Source: Actinomycetota bacterium
GTDB taxonomy: Bacteria; Actinomycetota; AC-67
Reading direction: 5' to 3'
Length of the DNA: 64,000 nucleotides
NCBI GenBank assembly: GCA_036398095.1
Contig: DASWHR010000027.1
Span: 8,174 to 72,173, forward strand
Shown here piece after piece: positions 4,140 through 64,000 of the stretch. The notes under the pieces were generated by a model. The model saw only the letters and a program-made list of their open reading frames with translations. It did no database searches and was not told where the DNA came from. Position 1 is the first letter of the stretch, and every line of letters starts with the position of its first letter. The translations under genes were made by a program, and so were the position numbers.

Positions 4140-5656
4140 GCTCCCAGCGCCACCCGCGCGGCGTTGCGGCCGGCTGTGCCCATCACGCCGCCGCCCGGCC
4201 GCGCTCCCGATCCGCACAGATACAGCCCCTCGATCGGTGTGCGGTAGTCGAAGCGCTCGCCGAAGGACTGCTCGGGCGTGATGGCGCCGTGAAAGATGTC
4301 ACCGCCGGTCAGCGCGAGCCGCTCTTCCAGGTCCGGCGCCGCGAGCACGTCCTCGGCCACGATCGCATCGCGAAGGTTCGGCGCGTAGGCCGCCAGCGCC
4401 GCCACCGCATTCTCGCGCGCTGCGGCGCGAACCAGGTCCCAATCCTCCGGAAGCGACGGCGCGTACTGCGTGAACGCGCTGAGCACGTGCCGGCCGGCCG
4501 GCGCCAGGGTCGGGTCGGTCGAGGACTGAAGAAAGACCTCCATGTACGGCCGCGGCGAGGGCATCGCGCCGCGAGCGTCCTCGCGCGCCTGCTGGATGTA
4601 TTCGATCGAAGGACAGATCTCGACCGTGCCGAAATGCTGCGACGCCGGCTCGGTTCCCGGCAGCATCGAAAACGACGGCAGCTCGCTCAGCGCCAGGTTC
4701 ACCTTCACCACCGCGCCCTCGTAGCGCCACGACGCGACCCGCTCGGCGAACGGCGACGGCAGCAGTCCCTCATCCAGCAAAGAACCGAACGTGACCGCCG
4801 GCGTCGCATTCGACAGCACCATCGGCGCTTCGACCAGCTTCCCGCCGGCAACCTCCACGCCTCGCACCCGCCCGCCGTCCACCACGATCCGCGCAACCGG
4901 CGACGAGACGCGGATGACCGCGCCCGCCTCACGCGCCGCCGCCGCGATCGCCTGCGTCACGCCGCCCATCCCGCCGCGCACGTACGCCCACGTCCCGTCC
5001 ATGCCGTTCAGCTCGCCGCCGATCGCGTGGAACGTCATGATCCAAGCGGTGCCGTCCTCCTCCGGCCCCAGCGCCGTCCCGATGATCCCTTGCCCGGCCA
5101 TCGGTCCTTGGATCTCGGGCGCGCCGAAGAACGAGCGCACCGTGCCGGCGCACGAGCCCGACACGCACATCCGGTACATCTCGTCTCCCAACGCGGCCCG
5201 CACGCCGTCCAGACCCGGCGGATCGGGCGACTCGACGAGCGGGCGGATCGCGGCGACCGCATCATCCCAGAATGCGCTCCAGCGCTTGTGTGCGTCCGCG
5301 TCGGCGGGACTGATCTTCGACAGCTCCGCGCGCGTGCGCTCGCCGTCGCGCCACACGAAGTAGTGGCGGCCGTCGGGCAGCGGCACGAACATCTGCGGAT
5401 CCTTCGGCGTGAACACCAGGCCGTGACGCGCCAGCTCCAGCTCGCGGTAGACGTCCGGCCGCAGCAGCGACAGCGAATACGACGCGGTCGAGATCCGGTA
5501 GCCCGGCGCGAGCTCTTCGGTGACGGCCGCGCCGCCGATCACGTCGCGCCGTTCCAACACCAGCACGCGCTTGCCGGCGCGCGCCAAGTAGGCGGCGGCG
5601 ACCAGTCCGTTGTGGCCGGCGCCGATCACGATCACGTCGTGTCGTTCGGCGATCAT
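4136..5656 (-). CDS. phytoene-desaturase (CrtI)-like FAD/NAD(P)-dependent oxidoreductase
   Basis: N-terminal Rossmann motif DVIVIGAGHNGLVAAAYLARAGKRVLVLE. About 500 aa with a C-terminal GSGARPGGGVMG motif typical of the CrtI/amine-oxidase fold. Confidence 0.75.
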   Translation of the reverse strand: MIAERHDVIVIGAGHNGLVAAAYLARAGKRVLVLERRDVIGGAAVTEELAPGYRISTASYSLSLLRPDVYRELELARHGLVFTPKDPQMFVPLPDGRHYFVWRDGERTRAELSKISPADADAHKRWSAFWDDAVAAIRPLVESPDPPGLDGVRAALGDEMYRMCVSGSCAGTVRSFFGAPEIQGPMAGQGIIGTALGPEEDGTAWIMTFHAIGGELNGMDGTWAYVRGGMGGVTQAIAAAAREAGAVIRVSSPVARIVVDGGRVRGVEVAGGKLVEAPMVLSNATPAVTFGSLLDEGLLPSPFAERVASWRYEGAVVKVNLALSELPSFSMLPGTEPASQHFGTVEICPSIEYIQQAREDARGAMPSPRPYMEVFLQSSTDPTLAPAGRHVLSAFTQYAPSLPEDWDLVRAAARENAVAALAAYAPNLRDAIVAEDVLAAPDLEERLALTGGDIFHGAITPEQSFGERFDYRTPIEGLYLCGSGARPGGGVMGTAGRNAARVALGA

Positions 5657-37385: not shown

Positions 37386-37403
37386 CGCCTCATCCGATAG
37401 ACA

Positions 37404-37431
37404 CGAAGGGCCGCCTGCGGGCGGCCCTTCG
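37404..37431. terminator. bidirectional stem-loop terminator
   Basis: GAAGGGCCGCC-tgcg-GGCGGCCCTTC forms a perfect 11-bp GC-rich stem between convergent genes ending at 37385 (+) and 37473 (-). The flanking U-tracts are weak. Confidence 0.55.
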
Positions 37432-37472
37432 TCTTACTCGGCGCCTTGTTCGGCGCCTTGCTCGGCGACAGC

Positions 37473-37808: not shown

Positions 37809-37893
37809 GCGGATAGTCTCGTCGAGACACGGGCGCGTTCAAGTGCGACGAACGTCGCCGGCAGGGCAAACCCTCAACTTCTGACGGCACTCG

Positions 37894-39357
37894 TCAAGAA
37901 TCTTGACGAGTGCCGTCAATACCTGACGGCCGCCCTCGCCGTCGCCCGGGGCCGGTCATGCCCTTCAGATCCAGCGCCTCGTCCAGCTCCTTCTCCGGAA
38001 GCACCTTGCGCTCTAACGCGACCTGCCGGATCGACTTGCCGGTCGTGAACGCTTCCTTGCTGATCTCGGCCGACAGGTCGTAGCCGATGGCCGGGACCAG
38101 CGCCGTCACGATCGGGAAGGTCTGCTCGGCCAGGTGCAGGGCACGTTCGCGGTCGGGTTCGAGCCCGTCGATGCACTTGTCGACGAACAGGCCGGCGGCC
38201 GACGACAACAGCTCGATCGACTCGAGCAGGTTGCGGGCGATCATCGGCATGAAGACGTTTAGCTCGAAATGGCCTTGCATGCCGCCGGCGACGATGGCGG
38301 CGTCGTTGCCGATCACCTGCGCGGCGACTTGCGTGACGACTTCGGGGATCACCGGGTTGATCTTGCCCGGCATGATCGACGAGCCGGGTTGCAGCTCGGG
38401 CAGCTTCAGCTCGCCCAGGCCGGCGCGCGGACCCGAGCCCATCCAGCGGATGTCGCTTGCGATCTTCATCAGCGACACGGCGATGGTGCGGAGCTGGCCG
38501 CTGGTTTCGACGCAGGCATCCTTCGCGCCTTGCGCCTCGAAATGGTTCTCGGCTTCGCGCACCGCAAGTCCGGAGCGTTCGGCCAGAATGGCGATCGCGC
38601 GCGCAGCGAACCGCTCGTCGGCGTTGATGCCGGTGCCGACGGCTGTGCCGCCCAGCGCCAGCTCGCCGAGCCGCGCGGTGGCGTCTTCGAGCCGGTCGAT
38701 GCCGCGGCGGATCTGCATCGCGTAGCCGGAGAACTCCTGTCCGAACGTGATCGGCGTTGCGTCCATCAGATGGGTCCGACCGGTCTTGATGTCGCCGGCC
38801 CACGCAGCCGCTTTCTCGTCGAGCGCGCCGCGAAGGCGCTGCAGCGCAGGGATCAGGTCGAAGGCGATGCCGGCGAGCGCCGCCACGTGGATCGCGGTCG
38901 GGATCACGTCGTTGGACGACTGGCCGCTGTTGACGTGGTCGTTGGGATGGACGAGCTTGGACCCGCGGTTTCCGCCGGCGATCTCGCTCGCGCGGTTGGC
39001 GATCACCTCGTTGGCATTCATGTTGGTCGAGGTGCCGGATCCGGTCTGAAAGATGTCGAGCACGAAATGCTCGTCGAGCGTCCCGGCGACGACCTCGTCG
39101 CACGCCGCTTTGATCGCGTCCGCGGTCTTCGCCTCGAGCAGCCCGAGTTCTGCGTTTACCGCGGCGGCGGCCCACTTGATCTGCCCGAGTGCTTCGATGA
39201 AACGGCGCGGGAATCGCCGTCCCGACACGGGAAAGTTCTCCACGGCGCGCTGCGTGGATGCGCCCCAGTAGGCATGCGCGGGGACGCGCACCTCGCCCAT
39301 CGAGTCCTTCTCGGTTCGGTCCTTGCTCACGGTCGATCCCTTCCTCGCCTCGATCAC
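37894..39357 (-). CDS. fumC: class II fumarate hydratase
   Basis: GSSIMPGKINP signature. N-terminal DSMGEVRVPAHAYWGASTQRAVENFPVSG. 487 aa. The GTG start is at 39357. Confidence 0.95.
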   Translation of the reverse strand: MIEARKGSTVSKDRTEKDSMGEVRVPAHAYWGASTQRAVENFPVSGRRFPRRFIEALGQIKWAAAAVNAELGLLEAKTADAIKAACDEVVAGTLDEHFVLDIFQTGSGTSTNMNANEVIANRASEIAGGNRGSKLVHPNDHVNSGQSSNDVIPTAIHVAALAGIAFDLIPALQRLRGALDEKAAAWAGDIKTGRTHLMDATPITFGQEFSGYAMQIRRGIDRLEDATARLGELALGGTAVGTGINADERFAARAIAILAERSGLAVREAENHFEAQGAKDACVETSGQLRTIAVSLMKIASDIRWMGSGPRAGLGELKLPELQPGSSIMPGKINPVIPEVVTQVAAQVIGNDAAIVAGGMQGHFELNVFMPMIARNLLESIELLSSAAGLFVDKCIDGLEPDRERALHLAEQTFPIVTALVPAIGYDLSAEISKEAFTTGKSIRQVALERKVLPEKELDEALDLKGMTGPGRRRGRPSGIDGTRQDS

Positions 39358-40288: not shown

Positions 40289-42229
40289 ATGAGCGACTAC
40301 GCCTGGACGCCGACACCCGCCTATGCCGACGCTGCGCGCGTCACGCGCCTGATGCGCGCTCACGGAATCGACGACTATCGCGAGCTGGTTCGCCGCTCGA
40401 ACGACGATCCGGCGTGGTTCTGGGATGCCGCCGTCAAAGATCTCGGCATCGAGTTCTTCACGCCGTATGCCCGCGTCTACGACGATGCGCGCGGTATCGC
40501 GTGGACGACCTGGTTCGACGGCGGGACGGTGAACCTGACCTACAACTGCGTGGACAAGCAGGATCCGTCGGCGCGCGCGATCGTGTGGGAGGGCGAGGAC
40601 GGAGCCGTTCGCACGCTCACCTTCGCCGACCTCCGCCGCGAGGTCGATCGCGTCGCGCGCGGGTTGCTGGCGCTGGGGATCGGCCAAGGAGACCGCGTCG
40701 CGATCCAGATGCCGATGGTCCCCGAGAACGCGATCGCGCTCTACGCGTGCGCCAAGATCGGCGCGGTGGTGCTTCCGATCTTCTCCGGCTTCGCGGCATC
40801 GGCGGTCGCGACGCGTCTGCAGGACGCCGGCGCGGTGGCGCTCGTCACGGCCGACGGATTTTTTCGCCGCGGTTCGGTCGTGCCGCTGAAAGAGACGGCC
40901 GATGAGGCGGCCGCCGCCTCGCCCACGGTCGGGCACGTCATCGTGTTCCGACGGATCGGGCGCGACATTCCCTGGACCGACGGCCGCGACGTCGAATGGG
41001 ACTCGCTCGGCCCCGGCGAGCCGTTGGACGCCCCGGCGCTGGATCCCGAGCATCCGCTCATGATCGCCTACACGTCGGGCACGACCGGCAAGCCGAAAGG
41101 CGCCGTGCACGTGCACGGCGGCTTCCTGGTCAAGATCGCCGAAGAAGCTGCGTATCAGACCGATCTAGGTCCGGGCGATCTGCTGTTCTGGTTCACCGAC
41201 ATGGGCTGGATCATGGGGCCGTGGGAGCTGATCGGCGCGAACGCCAACGGCGCTGCCGTGTTGTTCTACGAGGGCGCGCCCGACTATCCGGCACCCGACC
41301 GCATCTGGCGGATCGTCGAGCGGCATCGCGTCACGGCGCTGGGTATGTCGCCGACGGGGATCCGGGCGCTGATCCCGCACGGCGATGAGATGGCGCGTTC
41401 GCGCGACCTGTCGTCGCTGCGGATTCTTGCCTCCACCGGCGAGCCGTGGAATCCCGATCCGTGGCGCTGGTACTTCGAGATCGTCGGCGGCGGCCGTTGT
41501 CCGATCATCAACTTGAGCGGCGGCACCGAGGTGGGGGCGTGCTTCCTTTCGCCTTCGGTGCTCACGCCGCTGCGGCCGTGCACGCTCGGTGGGCCGTCGC
41601 TCGGCATGGCGATCGACGTCTACGACCCCGACGGCAAGCCGATGGGTCCCGGCGAGGTCGGCGAACTGGTCTGCACGAAACCGTGGCCGGGGATGACGCG
41701 CGGCATCTGGAACGATCCCGATCGCTACATCGCCGCGTACTGGTCGCGGTGGCCCGATGTGTGGGTGCACGGCGATTGGGCATCGACCGACGCCGACGGC
41801 TTCTGGTATCTGCACGGCCGCAGTGACGACACGCTCAAGATCGCCGGCAAGCGGCTCGGTCCGGCCGAGGTCGAGTCGATCCTGGTCGAGCATCCGGCCG
41901 TCGCGGAAAGTGCCGCCGTCGGTGTGCCCGACGAGGTCAAAGGCGAGAAGGTCTGGTGCTTCGTGGTGCTCAGGCCCGGCGTCGCCGGCGATGCGGCGCT
42001 TGCCGCGACGCTGCGAACGATGGTGGCCGACGGGCTGGGCAAGGCGTTCCGGCCCGACGCGGTTCGCTTCGTGAATGCGTTGCCCAAGACCCGCAGCGCC
42101 AAGATCTTGCGCCGCGCGGTCCGCGCCGCGGCGCTCGGCGAAGACCCCGGCGACCTGTCCAGCCTGGAAAACCCCGCCGCCCTCGACGAGATTCGGTCGA
42201 CCAGGGAAGAAGACTCTCGAAGCGTTTAG
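40289..42229 (+). CDS. AMP-forming acetyl-CoA synthetase family (acetate/propionate--CoA ligase-like)
   Basis: AMP-binding motif IAYTSGTTGKPKGAVH. The N-terminal region is Acs-like. C-terminal KIAGKRLGPAEVES. Trimmed to the ATG at 40289. Confidence 0.85.
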   Translation: MSDYAWTPTPAYADAARVTRLMRAHGIDDYRELVRRSNDDPAWFWDAAVKDLGIEFFTPYARVYDDARGIAWTTWFDGGTVNLTYNCVDKQDPSARAIVWEGEDGAVRTLTFADLRREVDRVARGLLALGIGQGDRVAIQMPMVPENAIALYACAKIGAVVLPIFSGFAASAVATRLQDAGAVALVTADGFFRRGSVVPLKETADEAAAASPTVGHVIVFRRIGRDIPWTDGRDVEWDSLGPGEPLDAPALDPEHPLMIAYTSGTTGKPKGAVHVHGGFLVKIAEEAAYQTDLGPGDLLFWFTDMGWIMGPWELIGANANGAAVLFYEGAPDYPAPDRIWRIVERHRVTALGMSPTGIRALIPHGDEMARSRDLSSLRILASTGEPWNPDPWRWYFEIVGGGRCPIINLSGGTEVGACFLSPSVLTPLRPCTLGGPSLGMAIDVYDPDGKPMGPGEVGELVCTKPWPGMTRGIWNDPDRYIAAYWSRWPDVWVHGDWASTDADGFWYLHGRSDDTLKIAGKRLGPAEVESILVEHPAVAESAAVGVPDEVKGEKVWCFVVLRPGVAGDAALAATLRTMVADGLGKAFRPDAVRFVNALPKTRSAKILRRAVRAAALGEDPGDLSSLENPAALDEIRSTREEDSRSV

Positions 42230-42340
42230 GAGGGTGCTGAAAAAGTGAGTGTCTGCATGCAAGCCCTCCCGACGTTAGCCCTCCGACCTTGGGCTGATTG
42301 AAGTCCGACCAGGCACGGGTCGGTCTTTTTCAGCACCCTC
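42227..42340. repeat. ~115-bp element bounded by perfect 17-bp inverted repeats (GGAGGGTGCTGAAAAAG ... CTTTTTCAGCACCCTCC)
   Basis: Seen directly in the sequence. The arms start at the acs stop codon and end at the stop of the PPOX-like gene. Internal sub-hairpins are AGCCC..GGGCT and CCGAC-caggcacgg-GTCGG followed by TCTTTTT. Confidence 0.6.
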
Positions 42341-42754
42341 CTAGGGAGTGTGGGACCAGTCGGTCCAGGCGGTGGCGTCGATCGCCACGATGGCCGGCGG
42401 CGGGGGATCGTCGGCCAGTTGCGGGTACTTGTCGCGCAGCGCCGCGTCGGCGCGCTCGTATTCCTCGCCGCGCTCCAGAATCCGGCCGCGGCCTCGGATC
42501 CGGACCCACCACGCGTTCTCCCAGGCTTCCTCGTAGTGGTCCACGATCACGATGCAGTCGGGCCGGACGCGCAGGTTCTCGACGCGGCGGAGGCTGGTCG
42601 TGGTCTTGGGTTTGTGGTCGACCGGAGAGTAGATCGTGTCCCCGATCAGCGCGTAGCAGAATGGAACCAGGTTCGGCCGGCCGTCGGGATCGATGGTGGC
42701 GAGCCGGGCGACGCGGCCGTCGGCGACGCGGCGACGTGCGCGATCCGGCGTCAT
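42341..42754 (-). CDS. PPOX-class (pyridoxamine 5'-phosphate oxidase-like) probable F420-dependent enzyme
   Basis: About 137 aa, MTPDRARRRVADGRVARLATIDPDGRPNLVPFCYALIGDTIYSPVDHKP... The ATG at 42754 overlaps the TGA of the upstream gene (ATGA). Confidence 0.65.
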   Translation of the reverse strand: MTPDRARRRVADGRVARLATIDPDGRPNLVPFCYALIGDTIYSPVDHKPKTTTSLRRVENLRVRPDCIVIVDHYEEAWENAWWVRIRGRGRILERGEEYERADAALRDKYPQLADDPPPPAIVAIDATAWTDWSHTP

Positions 42755-63032: not shown

Positions 63033-63295
63033 AGCGCTCCGCTGTCCACTGGGGACGGCGGGAACTCGACCAAACTCCTACCCGAGATTTGGGTTGGTGT
63101 TTGGTCGCTGTCTGCGCCTTGAAAACCGCATAGCGAGGACACGCGATTCGATCCGGGCCGGAAGAGCTTTCGGGTTCGACCGGACCGGGGGAACGCAAGT
63201 GAGAGCGGGCACCCTTTTGTAACGCCTTGTTAGAGATCAGCACCGACGGCAACCAAGGAGCTTCGGCCCCGAGGAAGCCGGCGGTGAGAAACCTC

Positions 63296-64000
<705 letters not shown>

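Follow-up and report, generated by a model that had tools for sequence, protein, structure and literature searches.

Two convergent genes of an Actinomycetota metagenome-assembled genome (MAG) are separated by an odd, structured gap of 115 bp. What fills this gap, whether a terminator, a small RNA or a mobile repeat, is the question raised by the locus. The gap lies within a 64,000-nucleotide (nt) stretch of contig DASWHR010000027.1 (hereafter the window, meaning that whole stretch); the contig is found in ENA and in JGI metagenome 3300033417. Our analysis indicates that the gap is very probably a transposable element of the miniature inverted-repeat kind (MITE) that carries IS5-type ends and has inserted where the stop codons of an acetyl-CoA synthetase-like gene (acs) and a PNPOx-like gene abut.

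Terminal repeats and rebuilt stop codons

The element proper is 113 bp long and is bounded by perfect terminal inverted repeats (17/17), located at 42229-42245 on the + strand (GGAGGGTGCTGAAAAAG) and, as identified by arm matching, at 42325-42341 on the - strand (reading CTTTTTCAGCACCCTCC on the + strand). A TA dinucleotide beside each arm (42227-42228 and 42342-42343) extends the perfect complementarity to 19/19 nt (42227-42245 and 42325-42343), these 19-nt arms enclosing 79 nt. The complete junction sequence is ...AGCGTT TA GGAGGGTGCTGAAAAAG (79 nt) CTTTTTCAGCACCCTCC TA GGGAGT.... The earlier note had described perfect 17-bp arms between convergent genes, spanning from the acs stop codon to that of its neighbor, there called PPOX-like. 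Both the arms and the span are as described, except that the right arm ends at 42341 rather than 42340 and the complementarity reaches 19 nt.

No other perfect spaced inverted repeat within the 64 kb reaches 15 nt. The element is present once in the window, with no other arm match at up to 3 mismatches, and two arm matches arose in 0 of 100 shuffles, which excludes a chance origin of the inverted repeat. The element is also lower in G+C than the window as a whole (57% vs 68%). On the + strand all three reading frames are closed within 21 nt: the second by a TGA within the left arm (42238-42240) and the third by a TGA at the start of the interior (42246-42248). At 113 bp the element is below the size expected of a bacterial MITE at most (about 300 bp) and has no coding capacity, and its 79-nt interior (42246-42324) is non-coding and specific to its subfamily.

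Both neighboring genes end inside the junctions. The acs gene (40289-42229, + strand, 646 aa; Pfam ACAS_N, AMP-binding and AMP-binding_C; 100% identical to database protein P0001) stops at TAG 42227-42229, which consists of the left TA and the first G of the element. The PNPOx-like gene (42341-42754, - strand, 137 aa; Pfam PNPOx_N and Pyridox_ox_2; a called gene in L118) stops at 42341-42343 (CTA on the + strand), which consists of the last C of the element and the right TA. TAG stop codons are thus recreated on both sides because the element starts with G and inserts into the TA of a stop codon.

The same arrangement is seen at other copies of the element, described below. In all seven copies of the subfamily, the junction TAG is the stop codon of at least one Pfam-confirmed gene. 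Genes ending this way encode a zf-HC2 anti-sigma factor, an HD-domain protein, Lgt, a chorismate-binding enzyme, a RES-domain protein, cytochrome b, a GAF-domain protein and a carbamate kinase-like protein, as well as acs and PNPOx. At three of the seven copies (the window, L127 and L131) convergent genes have both stops in the junctions, and at a fourth (L128) the second convergent gene ends 2 nt past the junction. Across all elements, the junction TAG terminates 16 of the 19 gene ends that read into an element; two gene ends stop at +11, at elements where the TA has been lost.

One sibling copy (L132, 3421-3545) lies between the genes for the N-terminal and C-terminal parts of cytochrome b, 13 nt before the next start codon. 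Its downstream flank, TAGGAGATTCGGATG, indicates that the target TA lay inside a sequence combining a stop codon with a Shine-Dalgarno-like motif.

Sibling copies, target duplication and the empty site

Sibling copies were sought by scanning metagenomes with a query made of part of the arm plus 7 interior bases. Of the 10 loci returned, seven carry full copies of the same element and represent six distinct sites (L127 and L135 are the same site). Over its full length the window copy shares 92-97% identity with these six siblings, and over the interior 89-95%. All are on Ga0214471/Ga0214472 contigs of 65-70% G+C with unrelated flanks, from the same metagenome series as the window contig. The 34 arm bases are invariant in all seven copies (window and siblings), although the interiors differ by 5-11%. 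At 8% divergence, the probability of zero changes in 204 arm sites is approximately 4e-8. This indicates constraint on the arms, which would be expected if transposition required intact ends. Many dispersed copies had been proposed beforehand as the mark of a MITE/REP rather than a plain terminator, and six sibling loci plus related subfamilies are what was found, in favor of a MITE.

In the other assembly of the window locus (L119, 4941-4956; JGI Ga0214471_10007869), the contig stops 16 nt into the left arm. Repeats break assemblies, which explains a contig end at this point.

A wider scan for exact matches to the 17-mer, with one genome per species, returned at least 117 loci. Among the matches listed, a second inverted arm is found 75-280 nt away at approximately 39 loci, defining elements of about 100-170 bp. 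Approximately 25 of these two-armed elements are about 100 nt long and belong to sponge-associated Acidimicrobiia (Ca. Spongiisocius and relatives), with several per genome. Others, with quite different interiors, are found in Bryobacteraceae/Solibacteraceae, Acidobacteriaceae, Mycobacteriales, Tepidiformaceae, Anaerolineae, Acetobacteraceae, Syntrophobacteraceae and Opitutales; beyond Acidimicrobiia, the wider spread includes Acidobacteriota, Mycobacteriales, Chloroflexota and Proteobacteria. The remaining listed 17-mer matches are single chance matches in coding sequence. Viral contigs gave no match to the 19-mer and seven to the 17-mer, all of them chance matches in coding sequence.

It should also be noted that in one Lachnospirales MAG (VLC_046; L019, L023, L025, L066 and L107) the 17-mer occurs inside an unrelated A+T-rich repeat, GGAGGGTGCTGAAAAAGTCAAAAAAGAAAAAAATATTACTAATG.... 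This repeat is present on at least five contigs, has a second similar unit approximately 88 nt downstream, and is not a member of the MITE family.

The flanks of the copies bear on how the element inserts. TA is present at both ends in the window and in five of the six siblings. Those five read C-TA/GGAGGG...CCCTCC/TA-G and the window copy reads T-TA/.../TA-G, while the L128 sibling has two extra bases at one end; the insertion context is C/T-TA-G in all seven copies. In other genomes, again among the matches listed, TA flanks 20 of 42 left ends and 27 of 42 right ends, a huge enrichment, and most non-TA flanks are one-base variants of TA. Because the context is CTAG, a 2-bp (TA) and a 4-bp (CTAG) duplication are indistinguishable in the siblings. 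The window copy reads TTAG at its left end but CTAG at its right, a pattern compatible only with duplication of TA and with G...C as fixed element termini. Older copies, in which the outer bases vary and the inner G and C are constant, likewise fit a TA duplication. Five of the seven young copies are compatible with a 4-bp CTAG duplication; the window copy and most of the older ones are not. We therefore tentatively favor a 2-bp duplication of TA, with a YTAR preference, over one of 4 bp.

Outer-base variation is also seen in intact-looking, full-length IS5-family insertion sequences (ISs) from IMG/VR. In four of these (L156, L159, L162 and L163) the outer bases of the YTAR flanks are not the same on the left and right, but the TA is invariably retained, and in two copies of one IS on a single contig (L163/L164) the base beside the TA differs. 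A plain 4 bp may not be the actual length of the duplication in this clade.

A relative without the element was found at L121/L122, where acs is 78% identical to that of the window. This is the only acs-homologue lineage that keeps the PNPOx neighbor; the other acs relatives (P0002 and P0004-P0007) lack it and so provide no empty site. Affine-gap alignment of L121/L122 with the window places one long gap across the element, with both flanks aligned. From the sequence, the pre-insertion site is predicted to have read ...GTT TAG GGA... (AGCGTTTAGGGAGTG), which is the present sequence with the element and one TA removed. In this predicted site, acs would have ended in TAG and the PNPOx gene in TAA, with the TA common to both.

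In the relative itself, acs is convergent with the PNPOx-like gene, and there is an overlap of 27 nt (L121, 4481-4507; L122, 4321-4347), and the C-termini of both proteins are unlike those in the window.

Origin of the arms

To what family of transposons do the arms belong? One match, reached through a short BLAST search of plasmids, is an Acidithiobacillus caldus IS that is annotated as IS5-family (L147). Its left end, TTAG/GAGGCTGCTGAAAAAGTCAGTG, agrees with the arm at 16 of 17 positions and continues into a subterminal GT.AGTG that is also present in the window element. A second A. caldus copy (ISAtc5 family) has CTAA at both flanks, and IS5-family ISs of Mesorhizobium and Methylocella end in CTAG/CAGGCTG(C/T)TGAAAAAG. 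Searching viral contigs with an alignment of IS5-family transposases returned 17 loci, and the same end type was found beside YTAR in 12 of the 13 examined. One of these loci, L167, is a 1366-bp autonomous picocyanobacterial IS (C-TA-GGAGGCTGCTGAAAAAG...CCTCC-TA-G) with an arm identity of 16/17. Its transposase contains DUF772 and DDE_Tnp_1 and scores 241 bits against NCBIfam NF033581 (IS5 family; cut-off 140). The end of E. coli IS5 (IS5A, K-12), GGAAGGTGCGAA(T/C)AAG, matches the arm at 14 of 16 positions with one gap. The arm ends are thus of the IS5-family inverted-repeat type, GGAAGGTGC.GAA.AAG.

These data suggest the following mechanism. The 17-bp arms would be the binding and cleavage sites for an IS5-family DDE transposase supplied in trans. 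Acting at YTAR sites (usually CTAG, but TTAG here), this enzyme would place the element within the TA, which would be duplicated. In an organism of 68% G+C, YTAR sites at which the TA tolerates insertion would be largely limited to stop codons, mostly TAG or TAA. With G as its first base and C as its last, the element would make each junction read TA+G, rebuilding the stop codons of the neighbors, and the other frames would be closed within 21 nt. An insertion where acs and the PNPOx-like gene met tail to tail would leave the genes 115 bp apart, as they now are. Target preference together with purifying selection would suffice to explain the placement at stop codons. When transcribed as part of a 3' untranslated region (UTR), the element would form a long hairpin, and the + strand hairpin with its U-run may incidentally terminate or stabilize the acs transcript.

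Several observations weigh against this reading. Searching with four IS5-family transposases (tblastn) gave no match in the window or in the Actinomycetota loci examined, so the partner enzyme in this organism is one that we infer. No full-length IS with exactly these arms is present among the 117 listed 17-mer loci. Most of the IS relatives appear to duplicate 4 bp (YTAR), in contrast to the TA alone of the window copy. TA duplication at CTAG is also a habit of IS630-family elements. The siblings share metagenomes with the window, though not necessarily a genome. Because the empty-site relative is only 78% identical, the junction it provides is approximate and the exact pre-insertion sequence cannot be reconstructed from it. 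Finally, a terminator or stabilizer role for the acs transcript may exist, but this role is read from the sequence.

Other searches bearing on a partner enzyme gave similar results. At L037 and L086, arm pairs are 1.7-3.3 kb apart with no transposase between them, and the open reading frames (ORFs) beside single arms in the 17-mer loci are ordinary genes or high-G+C artifacts. Among the matches listed, the protein search with the L167 transposase found close relatives from Synechococcus/Cyanobium; all listed matches are of picocyanobacterial type, with no actinobacterial partner among them. With respect to duplication length, elements of the IS5 group of the IS5 family produce 4-bp duplications. 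IS427-group IS5 elements produce 2-bp duplications (PMC3281130).

The TA duplication and the missing partner enzyme both bear on a first alternative, namely that the MITE derives from, and is mobilized by, an IS630/Tc1-mariner-family transposase, in the manner of RUP. Duplication of TA with a preference for a CTAG context is the classical IS630 pattern, and no partner transposase was found in the window or in the Actinomycetota loci examined. However, at 16/17 positions the arms match the ends of autonomous ISs with transposases that the NCBIfam IS5 model recognizes, and they match IS5 itself at 14/16. All end matches found are to IS5-family elements, although no IS630 end was specifically compared. 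We regard an IS630-type origin as unlikely.

The arms also bear on the suggestion in the earlier note that the element is a MITE or a mobile repeat of the repetitive extragenic palindromic (REP) kind. The dispersed copies, terminal repeats and TA duplication bear out the first half of this suggestion and not the second. A REPIN, or REP doublet, spread by a RAYT (IS200/IS605-like) transposase would resemble the element in its size (approximately 110 bp) and in having two inverted short repeats around a spacer. However, the arms are not themselves palindromic, they match IS5-family ends, and they are flanked by a TA target duplication, which REPs lack. A REPIN is an extremely improbable explanation for the element.

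Hairpins, termination and known systems

The element had been said to enclose about 80 nt with further sub-hairpins (AGCCC/GGGCT and another followed by TCTTTTT). The interior is 79 nt, the sub-hairpins are present, and a terminator scan of the + strand does detect a terminator-like hairpin followed by TCTTTTT at 42305-42330. Its stem is CCGACC-N7-GGTCGG (6 bp, five of them G-C; loop AGGCACG), one pair longer than the CCGAC-N9-GTCGG first given, and its T-run belongs to the right arm. The stem is kept in all seven copies of the subfamily, while the loop varies. On the - strand of the window copy, the same scan detected no terminator-like site. Family-wide, hairpins abutting a T-run are present on 16 of 91 element strands, compared to 7.4% in shuffled interiors; once the window subfamily is removed, the count is 9 of 77, barely above the shuffled value.

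In a Bryobacteraceae MAG (L003, approximately 4840-4951), a clean G+C hairpin lies directly before the arm T-run on both strands. The elements of this subfamily have the best-looking bidirectional terminator design of all.

We considered whether the family as a whole acts as a portable terminator. With 9 of 77 strands vs 7.4% in shuffled interiors, this idea is unsupported outside two subfamilies. A terminator role is possible for the window subfamily and for a Bryobacteraceae one, judging from their hairpins, and is not a property of the family.

A stronger form of this idea is that the element is a host-selected bidirectional terminator or insulator between convergent genes, with its copies reflecting functional recruitment rather than selfish spread. 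The arms, of the form ...CTGAAAAAG and CTTTTTCAG..., would place an A-tract and a T-tract around the hairpin, which is retained with its T-run throughout the window subfamily and has a clean counterpart on both strands in Bryobacteraceae. Three of the seven copies, moreover, have both convergent stops in the junctions, and L128 misses by 2 nt on one side. The lack of a terminator-like site on the - strand of the window copy argues against this form, as does the near-background frequency of T-run hairpins outside the window subfamily. So does the L132 sibling: it lies within a cytochrome b operon, with the next start codon 13 nt downstream, and strong termination there would do harm. The TA duplication and invariant arms indicate transposition. 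Host selection of a terminator is therefore a very unlikely origin for the element. What stands of the compound bidirectional terminator first suggested is a hairpin and T-run on the + strand, possibly a side effect of the insertion.

The possibility of a small structured RNA had also been raised, with a covariance search as the means to check it. The predicted fold of both strands is approximately 4 standard deviations better than that of shuffled sequences (z of about -4), as might be expected of a small RNA or a cis-regulatory 3' UTR element. However, the arm-arm stem dominates this fold, and the terminal inverted repeats account for it. No relevant Rfam match was found in the region at E up to 10, in 16 related loci or in the whole window. 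Compensatory changes are present in none of the 42 predicted pairs among the seven copies; variation clusters in mid-element regardless of pairing. In addition, interiors are unrelated between subfamilies, and no promoter-like site was found. A small structured RNA is highly improbable, and these comparisons give the RNA proposal no support.

A MITE with IS5-type ends accounts for an odd structured gap between genes that overlap in a relative, with no need to annotate an RNA gene or regulatory site. The locus is a clean example of a transposon entering the stop codons of a compact, G+C-rich genome with neither neighbor damaged. The 17-mer signature marks a MITE family in many uncultured lineages, particularly the sponge-symbiont Acidimicrobiia, and is useful for repeat masking and assembly. 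Mechanistically, there is little new here: MITEs are familiar, as are IS5-type ends and the hairpins that MITEs carry to gene ends. A literature search by arm sequence found no relevant paper on a family with GGAGGGTGCTGAAAAAG arms, and the family is absent from Rfam. A broader proposal is that the GGAGGGTGCTGAAAAAG elements form one MITE superfamily spanning at least five bacterial phyla, with ends shaped, through G-first termini and stops in the other frames, to home to and rebuild TAG/TAA stop codons, and that hosts in some lineages (this one and Bryobacteraceae) have kept them as portable gene-end terminators or insulators between packed or overlapping genes. We consider this proposal rather doubtful.

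Two further features of the window lie away from the element. An imperfect palindrome of 44 nt (73% complementary, its arms 1 nt apart) and a 22-nt hairpin (82%), at 37856-37944 and 37394-37441, are in or near intergenic DNA upstream of the ORF at 38269. The first approximately 700 nt of a bacterial 16S rRNA gene lie at 63295-64000 (+ strand; 650 bits) and could be used to place the MAG taxonomically.

Among known systems, the closest in their ends are the IS5-family ISs (E. coli IS5, the ISAtc5-like IS of A. caldus, and L167), which have similar arms (14/16, 16/17 and 16/17, respectively) and YTAR/CTAG sites with a central TA. Unlike these, the window element is only 113 bp long, lacks a transposase gene and shows a TA-only duplication, compared to the mostly 4-bp-looking duplications of its relatives.

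MITEPye1 of Paracoccus yeei is 159 bp long, has 18-bp repeats and a 4-bp duplication, and was related by its authors to the IS1182 family (PMC11578231). On the Paracoccus versutus plasmid pBEN (L145, 2506-2665) we observed a 160-bp MITE, flanked by CTAG, whose 17-bp arms (GCAGGCTGCTGAAAAAG) are perfect; it is present at 14 places in the replicon and is probably related to MITEPye1. A similar element of approximately 150 bp, with TTAG on both sides, is present on a Phaeobacter plasmid (L151). Like the window element, MITEPye1 and the P. versutus element are small, non-coding, multi-copy and intergenic, with 17-18-bp repeats of the GCAGGCTGCTGAAAAAG type, CTAG flanks and a long hairpin. They differ in their interiors, in the first four bases of the arms and in their alphaproteobacterial hosts.

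RUP of Streptococcus pneumoniae and the Correia element of Neisseria are MITEs of approximately 100-150 bp with terminal inverted repeats and TA duplication that are found at gene ends, and both have a known or proposed effect on transcript termination or stability. Their sequences are unrelated to that of the window element, and the IS5-like arms described here set it apart from RUP, which is linked to an IS630-family transposase. Lastly, bidirectional intrinsic terminators share with the window element a location between convergent genes and the combination of A-tract, G+C-rich hairpin and T-tract. In contrast to such terminators, the window element is multi-copy and mobile, is flanked by a TA duplication, and carries its hairpin and T-run on one strand only.

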